In this document: positions 35,498 through 46,144 of the stretch, in pieces
Layout: every line of letters starts with the position of its first letter
How positions within the stretch are numbered: the first letter of the stretch is position 1
Assembly: GCA_963828665.1 (NCBI GenBank)
Contig: CAWHFL010000011.1
Span: 156,550-220,549, forward strand
Source: an uncultured beta proteobacterium
GTDB lineage: Bacteria > Pseudomonadota > Gammaproteobacteria > Burkholderiales > Casimicrobiaceae
Reading direction: 5' to 3'
Length of the DNA: 64,000 nucleotides
Position numbers and translations under genes: made by a program
Notes under the pieces: model-generated
Told to the model about the DNA's origin: nothing
What the model saw: only the letters and a program-made list of their open reading frames with translations
Databases searched by the model: none

Positions 35498-35673
35498 TGC
35501 GGATGCTTGACTGATGCAAAGGTTTTCGAAACGGTGGTCGGCGCCGCGGCGCGCGACTTAAGATCGCGCGGTATGCGCGGCATTTTCGCACGGTTCGCGC
35601 GCGAAGCGCGACACGTATGGCCGGGGAGCGCAGTGCCGGTAGCCCGAGCAAAAATGCGATAATTCACGCCCTG

Positions 35674-37044
35674 ATGCCATCGTCGCTCCAAATCGCGATT
35701 CTCGCCGCCGGACGTGGCAAGCGCATGCGCTCGGCGTTGCCCAAGGTGCTGCAGCCGCTCGGCGGCCGGCCGTTGCTCGCGCATGTGCTGTCGACTGCGC
35801 GCAAGCTCGAGCCTCGAGCGATCTGCGTCGTCGACGGCGGCGGCGAGGTGCGCGAGCGCTTCGCCGACGCCGACCTCACCTGGGCGCGGCAGGATCCGCC
35901 GCGCGGCACCGGCGATGGCTTGCGGTGTGCGCTGACAGGACTGGGCCCCGACGGCGTCACATTGGTGCTGTTCGGCGCCGATCCGCTGGCGCGGGTCGAG
36001 ACGCTGCGGCAGGTCGCCGAGCGGGCGCAGGAAGGCATTCTTTCGCTGCTGACCGTCGAGCTCGACGATCCGACCGGTTACGGGCGCATCGTGCGCGGCG
36101 TCGACGGCAAGGTCGCGGCGATTGTCGAGCACAAGGACGCGACGCCGGAACAGCGAGCGATCAGAGAGATCAATACCGGCATCATGGCGGCACCCACGGC
36201 CGCGTTCGCGCGCTGGCTGCCGAGGATCGACAACCGCAATGCCGGCGGCGAATACTATCTGACCGACGTGATCGCGATGGCCGTCGCCGACGGCGTGCCG
36301 GTCGAAACGACTCATCCGGCCAGCGCCGACGAGACGCTGGGCATCAACAGCAAGCGCGACCTGGCGCAGCTCGAGCGGATCTATCAGCGTGCGCAGGCCG
36401 ACGCGCTGCTCGACGCCGCAGTGACTCTGGCCGACCCGGCGCGGATCGATGTGCGCGGCACGCTGGCGTGCGGGAGCGACGTGACGATCGATGTCGGCTG
36501 CATCTTCGAAGGCGACGTCGTCCTTGGCGATGCGGTCAGCATCGGCGCGTACAGCATCCTCAGGGACGCCAGCGTCGGCGCGGCGACGGCGATTGCACCG
36601 TATTCGCATGTCGACGGCGCCGCCATCGGCGCGCGGTGCCGCATCGGGCCGTACGCACGCATCCGTCCCGGCACGAACCTCGCCGATGAGGTCCACATCG
36701 GCAACTTCGTCGAGGTGAAGGCGAGCAACCTCGGCGAGCGCAGCAAAGCGAACCACCTGGCCTACGTGGGCGATTCGACCGTCGGCCGCGACGTCAACAT
36801 CGGCGCGGGCACGATCACCTGCAACTACGATGGCGTGAACAAGCATCGCACGGTGATCGAGGACGACGTCCATATCGGGTCCGACACGCAACTGGTGGCC
36901 CCCGTGACGATCGGCCGCGGGGCTACGATAGGCGCCGGCACGACCGTATGGCGCGACGTCGAGCCTGGGGTTCTTGTTTTCAACCAGAAAACGCAGGCCA
37001 GCAAGGCCGATTATCAGCGGCCACGCAAAAAAATCAAGGAATAG
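35674..37044 (+). CDS. glmU: Bifunctional UDP-N-acetylglucosamine diphosphorylase / GlcN-1-P acetyltransferase
   Basis: [27 protein letters not shown] and C-terminal left-handed beta-helix hexapeptide repeats. 456 aa from ATG 35674. Confidence 0.95.
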
Positions 37045-37048
37045 CGCC

Positions 37049-38863
37049 ATGTGCGGCATCGTCGGCGCGGTTGCGCGCGATAACGTCGTTCCGATTCTGA
37101 TCGAGGGCATCCGTCGGCTCGAATACCGGGGCTACGACTCGACGGGTCTTGCGGTCATCAACGGCGGCCTGCATCGATTGGTGAGTACCGCACGCGTGGC
37201 CGATCTCGCGGCGCAGGCGAAGGCGACGAAGATCTCCGGGAGCACGGGCATTTCGCATACGCGCTGGGCGACGCACGGCGCGCCGACGTCGGCCAACGCG
37301 CATCCGCACGTCAGCAGCGGCGAGATCGCGGTCGTGCACAACGGCATCATCGAGAACTTCGAGCCGCTGCGCGCGCGGTTGCAGCAGCAGGGATACGCAT
37401 TCGTCACCCAGACCGACACCGAGGTCATCGCGCATCTGATCCATGCGCATTACGACGGCGACCTGCTGGCCGCGGTGGCCAAGGCGGTCGCTGAGTTCCA
37501 CGGAGCCTACGCGATCGCCGCGATGACCACGCGTGAGCCGGGTCGCGTCGTCGGCGCGCGGGCCGGCAGCCCGCTGCTGGTCGGCCTCGGCGAGCACGAT
37601 CACTTCCTCGCCTCGGACGCGAGCGCGCTGGCGCCCGTCACCAGGCGCGTCGTTTATCTCGAGGAAGGCGACATCGCCGACATCGGACGCGAGGGATACG
37701 CGATCTATGACGCCGCCGGCGTGCGCGTCGCGCGCGAAGTGGTGACGGTCAAGACTTCGGGCGACGCGGTCGAGCTCGGTCCGTACAGCCATTTCATGCA
37801 AAAGGAAATCTTCGAGCAACCGCGCGCGATCGCCGACACCTTGGAAAGCGTCGGCGGCATCGGCCCCGAGCTGTTCGGGCCCGCGGCGGCCGAAATCTTC
37901 GCCGGCGTCAACGAGGTTCGCGTGCTGGCCTGCGGCACCAGCTACTACTCGGGCATGGTCGCGCGGCTATGGCTCGAGGCCGTCGCCGGCATTCCGGCGC
38001 ACGCCGAGATCGCCAGCGAATACCGCTATCGCGACAGCGTGCCCAATCCCGACGCGCTGGTCGTCGTCATTTCGCAGTCCGGCGAGACGGCGGACACCTT
38101 GTCGGCACTCAAACACGCCAAGGCGCTGGGCCATCGCAATACGCTGGCCATCTGCAACGCTCCGACGAGCTCGATGGTGCGCCAGACGGCGCTTACCTAC
38201 CTGACGCGCGCCGGCGTCGAGATCGGCGTCGCCTCGACCAAGGCGTTCACCACGCAATTAACCGCGTTGTTCCTGCTGACGCTGACGCTGGCCAAGCAGC
38301 GTGGAAGGCTCGACGCCGCGCAGGAAGCGCGCTGGTTGCAGGGCTTGCGCCACCTGCCGGCGGCGATCCAGGCAGTGCTGGCGCTCGAGCCCTCGATCAT
38401 TGCCTGGGCCGAACGCTTCGCCAAGAAGGAGAACGCACTCTTCCTCGGGCGTGGCCTACACTACCCGATCGCGCTGGAAGGCGCGCTTAAGCTCAAGGAA
38501 ATTTCGTACATCCACGGTGAGGCGTATCCGGCCGGCGAGTTGAAGCACGGGCCGCTCGCGCTGGTCGACGCCAACATGCCGGTCGTGGCGATCGCGCCCA
38601 ACGACGCGCTTCTGGAAAAGCTCAAGTCGAACCTGCAGGAAGTGCGCGCCCGCGGCGGCGAGCTCTACGTTATCGCCGACGCTGACAGCCAGATCTCGTC
38701 GAGCGAAGGCGTGCACGTGTTGCGCCTGCCCGAGCACGCCGGGCTGCTGTCGCCGATCGTGCACACGATCCCGCTGCAGCTCCTCGCCTACCACACCGCC
38801 GTGCTACGCGGCACCGACGTCGACAAGCCGCGGAACCTGGCGAAGTCGGTCACCGTGGAGTGA
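37049..38863 (+). CDS. glmS: Glutamine--fructose-6-phosphate aminotransferase
   Basis: MCGIVGAV (N-terminal nucleophile Cys), SIS domains, and C-terminal [13 protein letters not shown]. Confidence 0.97.
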
Positions 38864-38961
38864 TCCAACGCCGTACCGCGGCTTGCGGTACAGGCTGCCT
38901 GAGCGAAGCGAACGGGTGCCCACGAGATGCTGGCTCGCGACCGTTCGCGATCGGCGCGCGC

Positions 38962-41259
38962 CTAGTAGTCCAGCCACTCCATCGGCGAGACCAGCGCGGA
39001 GCCTTTGATGGTCTCCAGCGTCTGCGTCAGCACGTCGATATTGTTGTCGAATGAGCCGTGCGTCGCCTGGATGGTGGCTCCCGTCTTCGTCGTGCGCACG
39101 TCGGGTGTGGTGACTGGAAACCCTCGCTGCGAGGCGCCGGTCGTTCCAGGCTTCCACTCCTGCCGCCACGCCGTCATCGACGCGACCTGCTCGTCGGCCC
39201 ATTGCTTCGGATCGAAGGCATTCGGCGTGATCGCGTTCTGCAAGCCCAGAATCGGCATTTTTCTCGAATCGTCCAGCGCGCGCGACACGAGATAAAGCAG
39301 CGACTTCCCGTAGAGCTGGACTTCGGGGGAAGGCAGGCCGTCAGCCTTCTCATTCGAGTCGCTCAGATAATGGAGCCGGAGGTCCTCGAGATTGAACAGC
39401 GACGTCGTTGCGACTTTGCCGTACGTCCCTACCGCGAACTGGACCGAGCACGCCGCGGCGTAGAGCGTGCACGAGCTGACCGTTGGCGCGTTTGGCCGCA
39501 GATCGTCCTTGGCCAGCCGGTCCAGCAGCCAACCTAGCAGGATCGATCCCGCCGAGTGCCCGACCAGATGGACTTCGATCGCGCGCCCGTCGGTGCGCAA
39601 GGCATCGCGCAACGCGATGAGCTTCTTGGCGAGCAGGTCGAGCGCGCGGCCACTCGACTCCGAAGCTGCCGCGTTGTCGCGCATCTCCGTCCACATGCCG
39701 CGGAACATCAGGTGGCTGGTCGCCTCGACCAGACGGTCGGCGCCTTCGCGCACCTCATCGGCGACGCCACCTGCCGGGAGCGGTCCGATTTCCGGCTGGC
39801 CCTTGAAGTAATCCTGGAATATGTCGAGCAGCGTTTCGACCGGCCCCGTCTTCCACGTCATGAACAAGGGATAGATGCCGTTGGCCGCGGCGTAGGGCGC
39901 CAGAACGCGGATGCGGCGAATCGATTCGTCCTCGCCATTCAATCCGCCGTGAGCATAGATCATCACCTTGGCAGGCTTGCCGGCGGGTTGCGTCGCGAAC
40001 CACCGCCGGGGCGTGTCGACGACGATCTTGGTTGCGTAAGGCTCGGGATCGATACCGACGCCGAAAGTCACATCCGATACCGTCAGCGCGCCGTCGTTGC
40101 CGCTGACCAGCGTATGCGCGTAGGCATCCGCGGTGCTCCACGGCTGATAGGCAGCATAGTCGTACAGATGGTCGATCGGCCACGGATCGTCGCTCGGGTT
40201 GGCGGGGTTCTTCGGTGTCTTCGCCTGCGTTCCAAGCGATTGGCCGGCCGACACGCGAAACCGCGACAGCGCCACGCGCGCATCCGACACCTCGACCGGG
40301 ACACCGAGCGCACACACCCAGGCATCGGTGCCGTGCTCGACCCAGTCTTCGTACGGCAGGACGCCGAAACCGCGCGCACCCCATAGCTCGCCCCACGAGT
40401 TCTGGACGACAAAGCCGATGGCGTTATAGCCGACCAGCGCGAAGGCGTGCCCGCCCCACGACTTGGGATCCTTCGCCGTTCCGATGATGGGCAGCGACTC
40501 GTGCGATTGAGGCAGTGGTCGCTTTTTCGTTGCGAGCAGGCGGTCCCAGCCGTCGTGCACGTTCGCCGAGACGAAGACGGCGCCGACGTCGTTGAGCGCT
40601 GCCTGCAGATCGACGACCGACGCCTTGTCGACCCGGTAGTAGACGCCGAGCGGCCGGTTCGCGGCGTCGCGTTCCCATCCCCGCTTCGGCGACTGGAAAA
40701 TCGGCTTGCCTGTGCGGTCGAGCGCATAAGGCCATATCGGCTCAGTACAGACGCCGTGCTTGTTCCAGCCCTTGAGCGCGCCGCGGCAACTCGAACCCTC
40801 GTAGTCGACGCCGGGCCATTCGTCGTAGCGTCGCGCGAGCTCGTAGAACATCCGCGGGCTGACCGACACGAACGATTCCCTGGACCTGGACTCGACGTGA
40901 CGAACCCAGCGCAGGTAGTTGGCCACGCAGGTCAGGCCGAAACCCGTGCATGCGCCCTCGGTACCCTGGTCGCGGACCAGGCCGGCCTGAATGTAGCCTT
41001 TCAGATTCTGCGCGATGACGGCATCGGACGGCCAGCGCGGCGCGAGCGAACGCAACGGGGGACGATAGGGAAGGTCGCGAAAATCCAAGCGGTCCGGTCG
41101 CGCGTCGAGCACGCGACCGCTGAATCGGATCGCCGCGGCGTCACGCGAGGTTCGAGTCGCGACTTCGTCGGAGCGGGACCGCTGAGCTGACCGGCGCTCC
41201 TTCGCCCGCGGTCCGCGCTTCGCGGCGACTCCGGCCTTGTGGGTCTTGGTGTCCGCCAT
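38962..41259 (-). CDS. Two-domain hydrolase: papain-like C1 cysteine peptidase fused to an alpha/beta hydrolase
   Basis: 765 aa from ATG 41259 (GGGAGA Shine-Dalgarno). C1 triad motifs are RDQGTEGACTGFG (Cys104), GGHAFALVGYN (His271) and VQNSWGELWG (Asn287). The C-terminal half has VMIYAHGGLNG and the nucleophile elbow LVGHSAGS (Ser569). The N-terminal 40 aa is Lys/Arg/Ala-rich. No signal peptide. Confidence 0.75.
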   Translation of the reverse strand: MADTKTHKAGVAAKRGPRAKERRSAQRSRSDEVATRTSRDAAAIRFSGRVLDARPDRLDFRDLPYRPPLRSLAPRWPSDAVIAQNLKGYIQAGLVRDQGTEGACTGFGLTCVANYLRWVRHVESRSRESFVSVSPRMFYELARRYDEWPGVDYEGSSCRGALKGWNKHGVCTEPIWPYALDRTGKPIFQSPKRGWERDAANRPLGVYYRVDKASVVDLQAALNDVGAVFVSANVHDGWDRLLATKKRPLPQSHESLPIIGTAKDPKSWGGHAFALVGYNAIGFVVQNSWGELWGARGFGVLPYEDWVEHGTDAWVCALGVPVEVSDARVALSRFRVSAGQSLGTQAKTPKNPANPSDDPWPIDHLYDYAAYQPWSTADAYAHTLVSGNDGALTVSDVTFGVGIDPEPYATKIVVDTPRRWFATQPAGKPAKVMIYAHGGLNGEDESIRRIRVLAPYAAANGIYPLFMTWKTGPVETLLDIFQDYFKGQPEIGPLPAGGVADEVREGADRLVEATSHLMFRGMWTEMRDNAAASESSGRALDLLAKKLIALRDALRTDGRAIEVHLVGHSAGSILLGWLLDRLAKDDLRPNAPTVSSCTLYAAACSVQFAVGTYGKVATTSLFNLEDLRLHYLSDSNEKADGLPSPEVQLYGKSLLYLVSRALDDSRKMPILGLQNAITPNAFDPKQWADEQVASMTAWRQEWKPGTTGASQRGFPVTTPDVRTTKTGATIQATHGSFDNNIDVLTQTLETIKGSALVSPMEWLDY

Positions 41260-41379
41260 GAGGGTCTCCCTATGCTGCGCTAAGGACTGCGGCAACCGCC
41301 CGATTAGTGAACTACAACCCGATGGAGGACGCAAGAGAGGATGCCCTCCTGCCGAGCTGATTTTGGGTGTCCGGCGGGC

Positions 41380-41391
41380 GTGAATATTCAC
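41380..41391. repeat. Perfect 12-bp palindrome GTGAATATTCAC in the divergent island promoter region
   Basis: Read directly from the sequence. It is AT-rich relative to its surroundings and lies between the peptidase gene (start 41259) and the 2-TM gene (start 41584). Confidence 0.8.
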
Positions 41392-41583
41392 CTTGCGCTG
41401 GCGACTCGCCGGCATTATTGTCACCTACAACGCGTCGCGGGACGAAGGGGCGGGAAGTTTGCTTCGGCGCGTTTACGACCCGCCTTAATGCGAGTCCGGC
41501 GCGGCACGGGTCAACCGTTCGATCGCTGTTCAGATGCGGCGCGCAGGCACCCGAGCGCTGCGCGTCGACGGGAGGATCACAGC

Positions 41584-42186
41584 GTGGGCACTTTCGATTT
41601 CGTCGTCGTACTCGCCGGCTTGTGCGGACTCCTCATGGTTCTCGGAGGACTGCTGCTCTTCTACAAAGGGATCATCACTTTGCAGCAGGTCAGCGACAAG
41701 CCGGACGCCGTGACCTTCGAGTTTCAGCGCGTGCTGAAGATCCAGTCACGGTATCCCGCTTACGGGTTCTTCATCTTCGGGCTTGCATTCATTACGCTGG
41801 CCGCGTTCTATGGACGCCCCGACCCGCAGCCTACGATCACGCTGTCCGGGTCGGTCGAAAATGTCGTCGATCCCCAAGCGGCACGCGTCGTGGTTCAGTT
41901 GCCCCTTTGGGATACGAACCTCAATGTCGACGGGCGAGTGCGGAGGGACCTGCATCCGGATCTGAAACAGGTTCATATCGAGATCCGGTCGCCCGGCAAC
42001 GATCCTCCGATCTATACGACCGATGTCGACATCTCGGGGCAAGGGCGTGAGCTCACCGCTCAATTTGCGCCGGTAAAGCTCAAGAGGGTCGGGGCCCAGC
42101 CGCCGGCGGGAACCATCGAAAGCGTCCCCGCCGACGTCAAGCTGGCGTCTCCGGACACATCGACCGGATTCAAGGAAATGCCATGA
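41584..42186 (+). CDS. Hypothetical 2-TM membrane protein with a beta-rich C-terminal domain
   Basis: GTG 41584 is preceded by GGGAGGA. VGTFDFVVVLAGLCGLLMVLGGLLLFY and YGFFIFGLAFITLAAFY are hydrophobic helices. The 281-aa track ORF was trimmed. Confidence 0.55.
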   Translation: MGTFDFVVVLAGLCGLLMVLGGLLLFYKGIITLQQVSDKPDAVTFEFQRVLKIQSRYPAYGFFIFGLAFITLAAFYGRPDPQPTITLSGSVENVVDPQAARVVVQLPLWDTNLNVDGRVRRDLHPDLKQVHIEIRSPGNDPPIYTTDVDISGQGRELTAQFAPVKLKRVGAQPPAGTIESVPADVKLASPDTSTGFKEMP

Positions 42187-42518
42187 AGAAACTGGCTGAC
42201 GTACTGATCGCGTCACTCGCGCTTACCTTGGCGGTTGCGTTCCTGCCGATGGGAACGGCCGCCGCGAGCACCGTACAGGGCAGAGTCGCCTACCAGAATG
42301 GAACACCGATTCCGGGCATCACTGTCTATCTCGTGCATCCCAGCGCGGGACGCAGCGCCCCGGTGACCACTGATTCGGATGGCCGATTTCTGATATCCAG
42401 CGTGCCGCCGCAGCAGACGCCGTTTTACGTCGAGGTCTACTGGGGCCGTACGCTGAAGTACCGCAAGGCCCTCAGTGTGACGGCGCCTCGCGTCGCCGTT
42501 CCGGACATTCTGCTCTAG
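42183..42518 (+). CDS. Exported carboxypeptidase-regulatory-like (CarboxypepD_reg) beta-sandwich protein
   Basis: Signal peptide MKKLADVLIASLALTLAVAFLPMGTAAA, then GRVAYQNGTPIPGITVYL...TTDSDGRFLISSVPP...YVEVY. Shows ATGA overlap with the upstream gene and an AAGGAAA Shine-Dalgarno. Confidence 0.6.
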   Translation: MKKLADVLIASLALTLAVAFLPMGTAAASTVQGRVAYQNGTPIPGITVYLVHPSAGRSAPVTTDSDGRFLISSVPPQQTPFYVEVYWGRTLKYRKALSVTAPRVAVPDILL

Positions 42519-42618
42519 CGAGCGAGCCCGGTGCAGGCCGTCGCGATCCGAGACGGCTAACGCACGCGGCCCCGCCTTTCCCAGGGTACCCGGAACGTAA
42601 CGCAAGGAGCCTTTCGCC

Positions 42619-44094
42619 ATGGTCGAGAAAACGACTGCCCCGAAGCGCACCGCACGGCGTGCGAGCAAACGCGCGTCTCCCGCCACGGTGCTGGTATGGC
42701 AAGACGATCCGATGTCCGGCATGCCCGCGATTTCGCGTCCGGTTCCCAAGCTCGCGAAGCCACCGCTCAAGTACAAATTCAAGGGCGCCACGGTCAAGCC
42801 GGGCGTCTACGCGCAGGGCACGCCGCAATTCCGTTATTGGACTGCCGCCGAGGCCCTGCGACGCGGCGGCGACTTCTGGGCGCCGCTGCTCGGCGTCAAG
42901 CACTGGCAACCTGGCGCGGTTCTTCCGGTAAGCCTCGATAAGGGGGTCGACCTCAACGCCTATTACGATCGCTCCGAGCTCGCTTTCTTCCATGAGGCGG
43001 TGGGCGGGAAGACGATCTACTCCGGCGAGAGTCCAGACGTCGTGTGTCACGAAATGGGACACGCGTGTCTCGACGCCCACCGGCCGGAGCTGTTCGACGC
43101 GCCTTTCATCGAGGCCGGCGCATTTCACGAATCCTTCGGCGACATGAGCGCGATTCTCTCGGCGCTGCAATTGCCAAGCGTCCGGCAGTCGGTGCTGGGC
43201 GCCGTGAAGAGCTACAAGGCCTCCTTTGTTTCCCGCTGCGCCGAGCAACTCGGCTGGGCGATTCGTCAGGTCGCCGCACCCGCGGTCGATCCGGACTGTC
43301 TTCGCAACGCCTACAACGCGTTCAAGTACGTCGACCCGCAAACCTTGCCGGACGACGCTCCAGCCACCAAATTGTGCGCGGAGGTTCATTCGTTTTCGCG
43401 CATATTCACCGGAGCGTTTTACGAAATACTGTCCGGCATGCTGAAGATCCGGTCCGGCAAGCCGGCGCAGGCAGACCTCGCGGCGGTCGCCGGTGATTTT
43501 GCTCAGCTCCTGATGGATGCCACGGCGGCCGCGCCGGTGCAACCCAATTATTTTTCGCAAGTCGCGGCGCACATCATCGACGCCGACACCGCCCGCTTTT
43601 CGGGCAAGTATCGCGCGGCGCTGATCAAGACTTTTGTCGGTCGCCTCATCGTGCCCGAAACCGCAGTGCACGCGCTTGCTGCATCCAAGCGCGCGCCCGC
43701 AAAGCGCGCGGTTCGGACGGCAGCCTTAGCGGAAAGAGCGGCGAAGCCGCAGTCGCACAAGATCGCGATGAATACCAAGGAATTCGGCTTGCCGAACAAA
43801 CCGTTCGTGGTCATCGCGCCGCTCGACCAGAAACCCTTCCTGCTGGCGGCGGCGGGATTGGCGAACCGGCAAGCCGGGCCGGACGTCGTGCAGCAGGCCA
43901 CGCATCGCTTCGTGAAAATGCTTTTTGCCCACGACCGGGTCGATACCGCACCGGCAGCGAAAAAACTGTCGGTGACGGCCAGCACGCCGAGAGACAAGCT
44001 CCGCAAGACCCACGTCCTGATCCCATCGAAGGACGGACTGAAGCTCACGCGCCGCTTGTTCCACTGTGGATGCGAGGTCGAGCGGAGGCCCTGA
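42619..44094 (+). CDS. Thermolysin-like (M4-type gluzincin) metallopeptidase homolog lacking signal peptide and propeptide
   Basis: NAYYDRSELAFFHEAVGG...DVVCHEMGHACLD...GAFHESFGD parallels thermolysin NAFWNGSEMVYGDG...DVVAHELTHAVTD...GAINEAISD. HEMGH is at 43048-43062. AAGGAG lies 9 nt upstream of the ATG. The N-terminus is basic. Confidence 0.7.
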   Translation: MVEKTTAPKRTARRASKRASPATVLVWQDDPMSGMPAISRPVPKLAKPPLKYKFKGATVKPGVYAQGTPQFRYWTAAEALRRGGDFWAPLLGVKHWQPGAVLPVSLDKGVDLNAYYDRSELAFFHEAVGGKTIYSGESPDVVCHEMGHACLDAHRPELFDAPFIEAGAFHESFGDMSAILSALQLPSVRQSVLGAVKSYKASFVSRCAEQLGWAIRQVAAPAVDPDCLRNAYNAFKYVDPQTLPDDAPATKLCAEVHSFSRIFTGAFYEILSGMLKIRSGKPAQADLAAVAGDFAQLLMDATAAAPVQPNYFSQVAAHIIDADTARFSGKYRAALIKTFVGRLIVPETAVHALAASKRAPAKRAVRTAALAERAAKPQSHKIAMNTKEFGLPNKPFVVIAPLDQKPFLLAAAGLANRQAGPDVVQQATHRFVKMLFAHDRVDTAPAAKKLSVTASTPRDKLRKTHVLIPSKDGLKLTRRLFHCGCEVERRP

Positions 44095-44255
44095 AGGCAT
44101 CCGGGACGGCGCCCCTCGCGCTAATGTTGCCCGCGGGCCACTGCGGCGGCCGCGTTGGCAGTCTTCCGCATGGCTTGCGCAGTTCGTCCGAATGACGGCT
44201 CGCCAAGCGCCACGCGCGGGATTAACATTCGTCTTTGCTTTGGGTGAACATCGAG

Positions 44256-44549
44256 ATGGCAACGACGGCGCGCAAAAATCCCTCCGCAAAATCGACGCGC
44301 GCGGGTTCCGCCAAGACCCCTGTGCGCCGGACCAAGCCGGTTGAAACGTCAACGGTGGCTTCGCGTCTGCCGGCAGTTGGCTGGACGCAGCGCGAGGCTG
44401 CGCAGCAAAAATTCGAAAAGGGCATCCTCGCCCGGCGCGAGGCAATCGAAGCCGGCAAGCCGCTTCCTGCGGGAGCCACGCATGAGATCGTAGGGCGCCG
44501 CCCCGACGGCGCGCCGCTGCTCAAGCGGAAGCGATTCTCGGCAAGATAG
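44256..44549 (+). CDS. Hypothetical small basic protein
   Basis: MATTARKNPSAKSTRAGSAKTPVRRTKPVE...LLKRKRFSAR. Start ambiguous (TTG 44235, GTG 44244 or ATG 44256), RBS weak, and no family recognised. Confidence 0.35.
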   Translation: MATTARKNPSAKSTRAGSAKTPVRRTKPVETSTVASRLPAVGWTQREAAQQKFEKGILARREAIEAGKPLPAGATHEIVGRRPDGAPLLKRKRFSAR

Positions 44550-44555
44550 GCAGGG

Positions 44556-44571
44556 GACCGTGGCCACGGTC
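44556..44571. repeat. Perfect 16-bp palindrome GACCGTGGCCACGGTC (hairpin or possible terminator) at the right edge of the island
   Basis: Begins 7 nt after the TAG of the small basic ORF. The flanking G/C extend the stem. No T-run follows. Confidence 0.5.
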
Positions 44572-44711
44572 TCCGCGCGTCGGGTCTTCGCCATCGTCCC
44601 CCGGCGCGAGTGCGGCATGCTCGAGCTTGCCGGGAATCGTGCGCGCCGAACGCGATCTCTAGCGCGCACGCATCGGAAGGCGCAAGAGCTCTTCCGGCGG
44701 GTTACCTTGGA

Positions 44712-45059
44712 GTGAAACCTCGGGTCCAGTTTCGCCTGCGCATCAGTCAGGGCGAGGAGATCGCCGTCGGCCCGGGCAAGGTCGATCTGCTCGAGGCCAT
44801 TGACGCCGCCGGCTCGATCACGGCGGCAGCGCGATCGCTCGGCATGTCGTATCGCCGCGCCTGGCTTCTGGTCGACACGATGAATCGGTGTTTCCGGACG
44901 CCGCTGGTCGAGGCCGAGGCCGGAGGCAAGCGCGGCGGCGGCGCCCGCCTGACTCGGCTCGGCAGTGAAGTGATCGAACGCTACCGCCGGATCCAGCGCC
45001 GCGCCGAGCGTGCGGGCGCGGCAGACATCCGCGCACTGATGCGAAAGCTCGCGGGCTAG
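44712..45059 (+). CDS. modE: ModE-like winged-helix regulator, N-terminal DNA-binding domain only
   Basis: GPGKVDLLEAIDAAGSITAAARSLGMSYRRAWLLVDTMN matches the ModE/LysR-type HTH. The protein is at most 149 aa, so there is no room for the di-Mop molybdate-binding domain. Start guessed at GTG 44712. Confidence 0.7.
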   Translation: MKPRVQFRLRISQGEEIAVGPGKVDLLEAIDAAGSITAAARSLGMSYRRAWLLVDTMNRCFRTPLVEAEAGGKRGGGARLTRLGSEVIERYRRIQRRAERAGAADIRALMRKLAG

Positions 45060-46144
45060 GCGTATCCGACGCTGCGCCGGTCGAGCGACACCGCCTTGAT
45101 CAGCGCATAGACTTGCTGCCCTTCGCGCAGCGCGAGCTCGTGCGCCGACCGGCGCGTGATGCGTGCCGCAAGCGGCAGCTGCCCGGCCCTCAGCTGCACG
45201 TCGACGATCGGGCCTTCTTCGGAGGCGATCGCGACCAGCGTCGCCGGCAGCACGTTGAGCACGCTCAAACCAGCCGGGCGCGCCAGCGCGAGTGCCACGT
45301 CGCGCGCTCGGATGCGAACGCGGACTCTTTCGCCGACCAGCGCCTCGACGTTGGGCACAATCAGCTCGCCGCCTTCGAAGCGCAGTGTGGTGAGGCCGTA
45401 GACAAGATCGTGCGCAGCGACGACGGTCTCGAACACCGAGCCCGATTCGTAGCGACCGGTGTGGGGTCGCAGATCGGTCCGGCCCATCACCTCCTCGACC
45501 GGCCCCGAAGCCAGCGCCCTGCCGTCGGCGAGGAGCACGACCGTATCGGCCAGGCGGGTGATCTCGCCGACCGCGTGACTCACGTACACGATCGGAATAT
45601 GCAGATCATCGCGCAGCTGCTCGATGTAGCGCAGCACCTCGCTTTGCCGCGGCACGTCGAGCGAAGCGAGCGGCTCGTCCATCAGCAGCAGCCGCGGCTG
45701 CGCGAGCAGCGCGCGGCCGATCGCCACCCGCTGTTTTTCGCCGCCCGAGAGCTTGTCGGGCAGGCGACCTAGCAGCGACTTGAGTCCGAGCAGCTGGATG
45801 ACATGGGCCGGGTCGATGACACGCGCGGCGGCAGGCACGCGACGCAACCCGTACAGCAGGTTGGACTCGACGTCGAGGTGCGGGAAAAGCAGCCCGTCCT
45901 GGAATACGTAGCCGAGGCGCCGCTTGTCGGGCGGCAGGTCGATGCCGCGCGCGCTGTCGAACAGCGTTTCTGCGTTGATGATGATGTGTCCGCGATGCGG
46001 GCGGCTGGTGCCGGCGAGCGCGTTGACGAGGCTGGTCTTGCCCGAGCCCGAGCGGCCGAACAGCCCGACGATCGGCGCCTCGGCGCGAAACGCGACTTTG
46101 AGCTCGAACGTACCCAGGCGCTGCTCGATATCAACGTCGATCAT
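45056..46144 (-). CDS. modC: Molybdate ABC transporter ATP-binding protein
   Basis: 362 aa with Walker A GRSGSGKTSL, LSGGEKQRVAIGRAL, and a C-terminal TOBE/Mop-like domain. Its stop shares the CTAG tetramer with the modE-like stop. Confidence 0.9.
   Translation of the reverse strand: MIDVDIEQRLGTFELKVAFRAEAPIVGLFGRSGSGKTSLVNALAGTSRPHRGHIIINAETLFDSARGIDLPPDKRRLGYVFQDGLLFPHLDVESNLLYGLRRVPAAARVIDPAHVIQLLGLKSLLGRLPDKLSGGEKQRVAIGRALLAQPRLLLMDEPLASLDVPRQSEVLRYIEQLRDDLHIPIVYVSHAVGEITRLADTVVLLADGRALASGPVEEVMGRTDLRPHTGRYESGSVFETVVAAHDLVYGLTTLRFEGGELIVPNVEALVGERVRVRIRARDVALALARPAGLSVLNVLPATLVAIASEEGPIVDVQLRAGQLPLAARITRRSAHELALREGQQVYALIKAVSLDRRSVGYA

Follow-up and report, generated by a model that had tools for sequence, protein, structure and literature searches.

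A relic islet of five genes between glmS and modE in one Casimicrobiaceae clade, bounded by a copy of the glmS end and probably a mosaic of three gene units

Tn7 inserts about 25 bp downstream of glmS and leaves a 5-bp duplication; direct repeats of a gene 3′ end are a signature of site-specific integration at that gene, as in the case of SGI1 at trmE. A block of five genes directly 3′ of glmS was compared with both types of element. It lies in a stretch of 64,000 nucleotides from an uncultured beta proteobacterium (contig CAWHFL010000011.1, positions 156,550 to 220,549), which is called the window here at its full length. A sequence-only reading of the window had placed the block at the attTn7 hotspot and had proposed it as one undescribed degradative or conflict module. 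The block (38864-44699) was found to be a lineage-specific insertion in one clade of the Casimicrobiaceae (Burkholderiales), and its genes were found to belong to three units which are distributed independently elsewhere and do not form one system. The complete reading, in which a clade-specific islet carries the duplicated glmS end as a scar and is a mosaic of three independently distributed units, is considered probable.

The block was found to share with Tn7 the location of accessory DNA directly 3′ of glmS and the presence, elsewhere, of a homologue of one cargo gene beside Tn7-like genes, whereas it contained neither tnsABCD nor terminal repeats and its junction was a duplication of a gene end. 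With integrase-type islands it was found to share boundaries that both repeat a gene 3′ end, relatives in which the site is empty, and a slight deviation in composition, whereas it contained no integrase, excisionase or transfer genes, was only 5.8 kb long and was bounded by a short and decaying repeat. As a genomic island, the islet is small, relic and devoid of an integrase.

The insertion between glmS and modE

The block and its boundaries were found to contain the following features, given in window positions with glmS from the list of open reading frames.

37049-38863: glmS
38848-38863, plus strand: final 16 nt of glmS, stop included, GGTCACCGTGGAGTGA; left copy of the direct repeat
38864-38961: left junction of 98 bp, from the glmS stop to the convergent stop of the fusion gene, with a hairpin of 7-bp stem at 38873-38891
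38962-41259, minus strand: gene of the C1 peptidase/alpha-beta-hydrolase fusion, 765 amino acids (aa)
41260-41583: divergent spacer of 324 bp, presumed promoter region of both units
41584-42186, plus strand: gene of a protein with two transmembrane segments (2-TM protein), 200 aa, GTG start, GGGAGGA ribosome-binding site
42183-42518, plus strand: gene of the CarboxypepD_reg protein, 111 aa, its ATG overlapping the TGA of the 2-TM gene (ATGA)
42619-44094, plus strand: gene of the HEMGH metallopeptidase, 491 aa
44256-44549, plus strand: gene of the small basic protein, 97 aa
44700-44715, plus strand: right copy of the direct repeat, a degenerate glmS 3′ end matching at 14/16 positions, GGTTACCTTGGAGTGA, overlapping the modE GTG start at 44712
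44712-45059: modE, a short ModE-type regulator, GTG start, 115 aa (TIGR00637, E 2.6e-26)

The window was placed, and its relatives were found, by a GlmS scan of species-representative genomes, by which the window falls in the Casimicrobiaceae with a Casimicrobiaceae metagenome-assembled genome (MAG) as the best named match (85%). The five-gene block was found in the same place, order and orientation in three genomes, namely the window, L001 and L096/L097 (labels L001-L261 denote the compared genomic stretches, and P0007 and P0338 are homologues of the fusion protein). The GlmS proteins of these genomes were 94% identical among themselves, and the genomes form one clade. The site was found to be empty in L011 (Casimicrobiaceae MAG DASPTZ010000058.1), L012 and L013 (GlmS 84-86% identical), where glmS runs straight into modE-modCBA, and these three branch separately outside the block-bearing clade. 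More distant genomes contained neither the block nor an adjacent modE. By this comparison of the interval from glmS to modE, which had been suggested together with the sequence-only reading, the block is accessory, being absent from L011-L013 and present in one clade. As the block-bearing genomes form one clade and the empty-site genomes lie outside it, a single gain is the parsimonious reading. The block genes were 64-90% identical between the block-bearing genomes as against 81-96% for the flanking genes, and since this divergence fits that of the flanks, the block is at present inherited vertically within the clade.

At the boundaries, the left repeat copy forms the end of glmS itself, followed after the block by the right copy at the start of modE. 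Among the approximately 128,000 16-mers of the window, only two were found to match the glmS end at 13 or more of 16 positions. As a degenerate copy of the glmS end sits at the start of modE, the stretch between the copies is a true insertion. In L011 the glmS 3′ end was also found to be duplicated (32/48 nt), 124 bp after the real stop, with the copy fused to the modE GTG. This stretch (L011:11780-11945) represents the same hotspot without cargo, and its 124-bp spacer holds a GC-rich hairpin. The spacer was tried as a remnant of the block and was rejected, no similarity to the block ends being found.

An inverted repeat of 34 nt with 76% complementarity (38926-38959 and 44641-44674) was found to flank the whole block, and its score was reached by 1/300 to 3/1000 shuffles. 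It was discounted as an element end, as L001 and L096 contained no counterpart, and it is either due to chance or lineage-specific. The left junction as a whole was poorly kept in L001 and L096, except for about 14 nt adjoining the fusion-gene stop.

An ancestral block, with the adjacency of glmS and modE in L011, L012 and L013 produced by deletions, is very improbable. Only two states of the site were observed, and the 124-bp spacer between the duplicated glmS ends of L011 could be a deletion scar; several independent losses would however be needed in place of one gain, as the empty-site genomes branch separately outside the clade. The more distant genomes, without the block and without an adjacent modE, the dissimilarity of the L011 spacer to the block ends and the third-position GC content (GC3) of the plus-strand genes, which is lower than that of the flanks, also argue against deletion.

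The position directly 3′ of glmS also suits a decayed cargo of a Tn7-like transposon inserted at attTn7, as does P0007, a 76%-identical homologue of the fusion protein whose gene adjoins TnsA, TnsB, TnsC and TniQ/TnsD genes. In Acinetobacter, glmS often carries decayed Tn7-like insertions: 54/203 genomes were reported with an insertion there, fewer than half of these insertions being complete (PMC11014353). In the present locus, 16 nt or more of the glmS 3′ end are repeated at the right boundary, joined to the modE start, and similarity to the Tn7-linked locus does not extend beyond the fusion coding sequence. The Tn7 position about 25 bp past glmS would here fall inside modE. Neither tns genes nor Tn7-type terminal repeats were found, and the window contained no repeat arrays. 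As the junction anatomy disagrees, an origin as Tn7-like cargo is held to be most doubtful. The attTn7 claim of the sequence-only reading is thus kept in its position 3′ of glmS, whereas tns genes, Tn7-type ends and a 5-bp duplication, which would have made it a Tn7 site, were not found.

For the favoured site-specific origin, the following course is proposed. The ancestral state was probably a glmS overlapping modE through GTGA, and the site would then have been opened by events that duplicated the glmS 3′ end. The duplicated gene end may be the trace of a site-specific integrative element, unlike Tn7, and the islet would since have been stripped of any mobility genes.

Independent distribution of the three gene units

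The fusion gene (unit 1) was found without the other block genes in L002-L006, L091 and L260. A homologue at 70-81% identity was found alone between sox and bmp genes, whereas elsewhere the homologue adjoined opp-like, amidase and M20 genes; further homologues were located on an Ideonella replicon and on rhizobial plasmids. A neighbourhood sample of 80 further metagenome loci (39-82% identity, 44 of them at least 8 kb long) contained no locus (0/80) with another block gene, glmS, modE or a tns gene nearby, and a tblastn search of these loci with the TnsA, TnsB and TnsC of L002 gave no match. No conserved partner of the fusion gene was found in this sample, no neighbour family being present in more than 6 of the 80 loci. 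The P0007 gene is situated in L002:1-16000 and in L003, downstream of TnsA, TnsB, AAA_22 TnsC-like and TniQ/TnsD genes and followed by unknown genes of 333 aa and 803 aa; the element ends could not be mapped. On the conjugative plasmid pSfreNXT3a of Sinorhizobium fredii (L261, 47429-51430), a 684-aa homologue named 'C1 family peptidase' was found to be divergent from a 'peptidoglycan-binding domain-containing protein' gene, with a separate alpha/beta-hydrolase gene about 3 kb from the C1 homologue.

The metallopeptidase and small basic protein genes (unit 3) occurred as a pair, unaccompanied by the rest of the block, in L007-L010, L092, L258 and L259, including Caenimonas and Usitatibacter. 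The small-partner gene was located downstream of the metallopeptidase gene in nearly all contexts examined, and the pairing was found to persist at 44-46% identity on plasmids of Mesorhizobium, Aminobacter and Polymorphobacter. On pSymA of Sinorhizobium medicae the partner copy was degenerate. No relative of the metallopeptidase was found in viral contigs. In one metagenomic genome (L010, 1-2136 and 16107-17141), an IS110 transposase and genes of ubiquitin-like conjugation (JAB, ThiF, YukD) were observed within 6-8 kb of the pair. Together, the fungalysin-fold peptidase and its small partner make up a third uncharacterised unit, of two genes, whose pairing is conserved from alpha- to betaproteobacteria.

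The overlapping 2-TM/CarboxypepD_reg pair (unit 2) was found to be kept in L094 and L095. In L094 (10001-11744) the pair is directly followed by a class-3 lipase gene (Lipase_3), whose product has no evident signal peptide. L095 (1244-6432) contained a tight five-gene operon of patatin (340 aa), HETTH thermolysin-like peptidase (618 aa), MBL-like protein (445 aa), 2-TM and CarboxypepD_reg genes. The 618-aa peptidase and the window peptidase were 37% identical across 82 aa surrounding the active site (E 2e-10). The L095 operon is a genuinely linked multi-hydrolase cassette, which shares with the window only the end pair and a distant peptidase relative.

As the fusion gene, the peptidase pair and the 2-TM pair can each be found in the absence of the rest, the five genes do not hold together as a module; DNA homology to the loci of other contexts was found to end at the edges of the coding sequences. 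The undescribed degradative or conflict module proposed by the sequence-only reading is not retained, the five genes being found scattered and unlinked elsewhere, which that reading had itself named as the outcome against it. The same order and orientation in the three clade genomes, the hydrolase nature of all catalytic members and the fusion homologue beside Tn7-like genes, a common home of defence cargo, would suit one co-functional conflict, defence or degradative system; the conservation in the clade is nevertheless explained by vertical descent, with a divergence about as in the flanks. Given also the 0/80 fusion loci with any of the other four genes, the separate occurrence of the peptidase pair and of the 2-TM pair, and the lack of PADLOC hits, such a system is regarded as very unlikely.

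A smaller module, in which units 2 and 3 form one four-gene operon and the membrane/periplasmic pair serves the peptidase in export, anchoring or self-protection, is unlikely. The four genes share one strand, their gaps measuring only 100 and 161 bp, the pair closes a tight operon with a distant peptidase relative (HETTH) in L095, and in L094 it precedes the Lipase_3 gene. The peptidase gene was however found to have its own AAGGAG ribosome-binding site after the 100-bp gap, its family of about 2000 members occurs without the pair in every sampled context outside the clade, and only 20 members of the 2-TM family were detected. The mosaic of three units is preferred over both modules.

Catalytic domains and known enzyme families

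The block proteins are divergent representatives of known catalytic folds, and databases already list their gene families under 'C1 family peptidase' or 'hypothetical protein'. The catalytic sites of both hydrolases were found to be intact. The fusion protein contained the following domains.

40300-41106, minus strand: C1 (papain-fold) domain, residues ~52-320
38965-39987, minus strand: C-terminal alpha/beta-hydrolase domain, residues ~425-765

The C1 domain was matched by PF00112 in Pfam at residues 95-298 (22.3 bits as against a cut-off of 20.7), and the fusion homologues are mostly annotated beforehand with PF00112 under the name 'C1 family peptidase'. The best match in both sequence and fold was xylellain, the C1A peptidase of Xylella fastidiosa (3OIS; phmmer E 1.4e-11, Foldseek E 5e-13), followed by papain (Foldseek about 5e-7). 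Gln98, Cys104, His271 and Asn287 were invariant in 44 sequences, and the same Gln, Cys, His and Asn are conserved in xylellain. The identity to xylellain was only 24-25%, and the window protein was found to add a basic N-terminus of 60 aa, which is disordered in the model (residues 1-60), and, at the C-terminus, some 440 aa that include the alpha/beta-hydrolase. Among the block proteins only the C1 domain was matched in PHROGs. The short C1 type is common in phages too (PMC10380794), and phage relatives of the domain include lysin-like fusions to peptidoglycan-binding and muramidase domains; viral contigs contained the short C1 domain only and never the fusion.

The C-terminal domain contained HGG at 437-439, a GHSAG elbow with Ser569, Asp640 and His734, all invariant or nearly so, and an alternating strand-helix pattern over residues ~425-765 of the model. 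The elbow, the HGG and the Ser-Asp-His order are shared with DUF900 (PF05990), DUF676, LCAT and LysB, whereas the window domain differs from DUF900 in staying below the Pfam thresholds (DUF900 12.1 bits, cut-off 20.5; Abhydrolase_6 12.9-14.8 bits, cut-off 26.3), in its fusion to a cysteine peptidase and in the absence of a signal peptide. Other family members pass DUF900 (5/20, best E 3e-5; P0338 at 22.3 bits) and also match Abhydrolase_6, LIDHydrolase and DUF676. Weak matches to LCAT, DUF676 and LysB were given by a fold search (BFVD), and to serine hydrolase and lipases by profile search against the Protein Data Bank (PDB), where a single-sequence search gave nothing useful. DUF900 accounts for 69% of the homologues of 'cinquedea', a secreted archaeal bactericidal phospholipase (bioRxiv 10.64898/2026.06.10.730825).

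At 90% identity the fusion family comprised more than 6,400 clusters that share the full-length architecture, from Burkholderiales, Solimonas and Acidobacteriota, and the C-terminal domain family contained 1,517 clusters at 50% identity, most of them about 700 aa long and of identical architecture. Longer relatives were found to add a PG_binding_1 or GH19-like domain, none of them with a signal peptide, and one relative contained Amidase_2 and a caspase domain in place of C1, also without a signal peptide. Hydropathy gave no hydrophobic or signal segment in the window protein. In the literature on xylellain, DUF900 and glmS islands, no characterised member of the fusion architecture was found. 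Unit 1 would thus combine a xylellain-type Cys-His-Asn peptidase and a DUF900-like Ser-Asp-His hydrolase in one solitary gene. In view of the peptidoglycan-related domains of its relatives, the lysin-like fusions of the phage C1 domains, the peptidoglycan-binding neighbour on pSfreNXT3a and its lipase-like C-terminal domain, the enzyme probably cuts cell-envelope substrates at one peptide bond and one ester bond. A weapon that acts alone on the envelope, or an effector of abortive infection, is conceivable as its role.

The metallopeptidase contained HEMGH at 144-148 and Glu171 (HESFGD), with H144, E145, H148 and E171 invariant in 40 sequences. Its Pfam matches were below threshold (M36 22.4 bits against 23.3, M4_C 15.2 against 24.4, M4 14.6 against 22.4). 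The AlphaFold2 (AF2) model (predicted local distance difference test, pLDDT, 83.5) contained an extra C-terminal alpha/beta domain and was matched by Foldseek to M36 4K90 (4.7e-7, template-modelling score, TM, 0.55 on the target) and to aureolysin 1BQB (5.4e-4), by which the protein is modelled as a Zn-peptidase of the fungalysin/thermolysin fold. With M36 fungalysin and M4 thermolysin and aureolysin it shares the HEXXH motif, the downstream Glu in HExxxD context and the two-lobe fold, whereas it differs from them in its scores below the Pfam cut-offs, in the absence of a signal peptide (top 12-aa hydropathy 0.44 in the first 70 residues) and of any match to the FTP or PepSY propeptides, in the extra domain, in its net charge of +23 and in the small partner. 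The partner has a net charge of +15, contains no hydrophobic segment by hydropathy and is conserved over a C-terminal core of some 50 aa (LPxGATHxIxG...RFS). Thermolysin-fold enzymes are seldom so strongly basic, and the charge may hint at a setting that involves nucleic acids or other polyanions. An origin of the partner as a paralogue of the peptidase C-terminus, seen by eye, was rejected (hhalign probability 2.9%). The metallopeptidase family comprises about 2,000 clusters, all annotated as hypothetical, and in the literature on fungalysin no characterised member of the pair was found. The partner might regulate or chaperone the propeptide-less peptidase in trans.

In the 2-TM protein, hydropathy gave two transmembrane helices, after which comes a soluble domain of about 115 aa, and no Pfam, NCBIfam, PADLOC or PHROG match was found for the protein. 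Homologues are likewise 200 aa long; 20 were detected, of which the one named source is a Casimicrobiaceae MAG. The CarboxypepD_reg protein was matched by the transthyretin-like PF13620 (46.9 bits against 32.3, E 3.6e-12) and contained an N-terminal hydrophobic, signal-like segment by hydropathy. Unit 2 would be a translationally coupled pair of a membrane and an exported protein, an envelope accessory of hydrolases without signal peptides, and it could act as an envelope device for the non-classical export or self-protection of the peptidase, patatin or class-3 lipase. It is considered improbable that any of the three units constitutes a functional system not yet described.

Several points weigh against the reading of a scarred mosaic islet with these enzymes. 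The direct repeat is short and is decayed in L096, the site-specific mechanism of integration is read from the scar alone, and no version of the islet bearing an integrase was found. A functional link between units 2 and 3 may nevertheless exist, since a distant thermolysin-like gene adjoins the 2-TM/CarboxypepD_reg pair in L095. The alpha/beta-hydrolase domain of the window reaches no Pfam threshold by itself, the solitary fusion enzyme comes without a signal peptide, holin or immunity gene and so without an evident route to an envelope substrate, and every functional statement on the five families is inferential.

Surroundings of the locus and meaning of the islet

The neighbouring genes on both sides were found as follows.

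35617-37044: glmU (list of open reading frames)
45056-46144, minus strand: modC, one of the modCBA genes

The modE of the window contained the N-terminal domain only, without the Mop/TOBE domains, and modE and modC are convergent with their 3′ ends overlapping by 4 bp. The rest of the window contained origin-proximal housekeeping genes (gyrB, dnaN, dnaA, yidC, the atp operon, parA and glmUS), as the sequence-only reading had recognised, with gyrB, dnaN and dnaA on the minus strand followed by yidC and the ATP synthase operon at 1-26000.

The five open reading frames of that reading, with their coordinates, the 324-bp spacer and the ATGA coupling, agreed with the list of open reading frames and were all conserved in relatives, and the block was located directly 3′ of glmS as described, glmS ending at 38863, 98 bp from the fusion-gene stop. 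Its domain calls were correct, the C1 and CarboxypepD_reg matches being above the Pfam cut-offs and the fold behind the sub-threshold M36/M4 matches being confirmed by Foldseek; two transmembrane segments and an N-terminal signal-like segment were likewise obtained by hydropathy for the 2-TM and exported CarboxypepD_reg proteins. The lower GC content noted by eye was found to be a real but small dip in windowed GC and GC3. GC in 1-kb windows was 0.63-0.66 in the block as against 0.665-0.685 in the flanks, and the GC3 of the block genes was 0.71-0.82 as against 0.82-0.87 in the flanks, within the spread of the other window genes, dnaN and dnaA being as low as the block genes. The GC minimum of the window (0.586-0.60) is located at dnaN/dnaA and not in the block.

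As had been noted, no tRNA was found in the window, and tns genes, transposases and integrases were likewise not found on checking; profiles of Pfam and NCBIfam gave no transposase, integrase, recombinase or tns domain in the five block proteins. No named defence or secretion system had been recognised in the block, and PADLOC-DB v2 gave zero matches for all five proteins at E up to 0.1. The spacer at 41260-41583 was the stretch least conserved against L001 and contained no match to the sigma-70 consensus; a promoter and terminator scan was at or below chance, and Rfam gave nothing credible in 38.5-48.8 kb, including this spacer. The gaps between the plus-strand genes were located before the metallopeptidase gene (100 bp) and before the small-protein gene (161 bp).

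The block itself is no new system; it is an ordinary relic islet of modest value in its own right, which points to gene families. Three of these are worth testing, none with a characterised member found, namely the widespread papain-fold/alpha-beta-hydrolase fusion, the signal-less fungalysin-fold peptidase with its partner, and the rare membrane/periplasm pair. Blocks adjacent to glmS are not all attTn7 cargo and call for caution, and in this soil lineage the glmS 3′ end serves as a hotspot of insertion through duplication of the gene end and not through Tn7.

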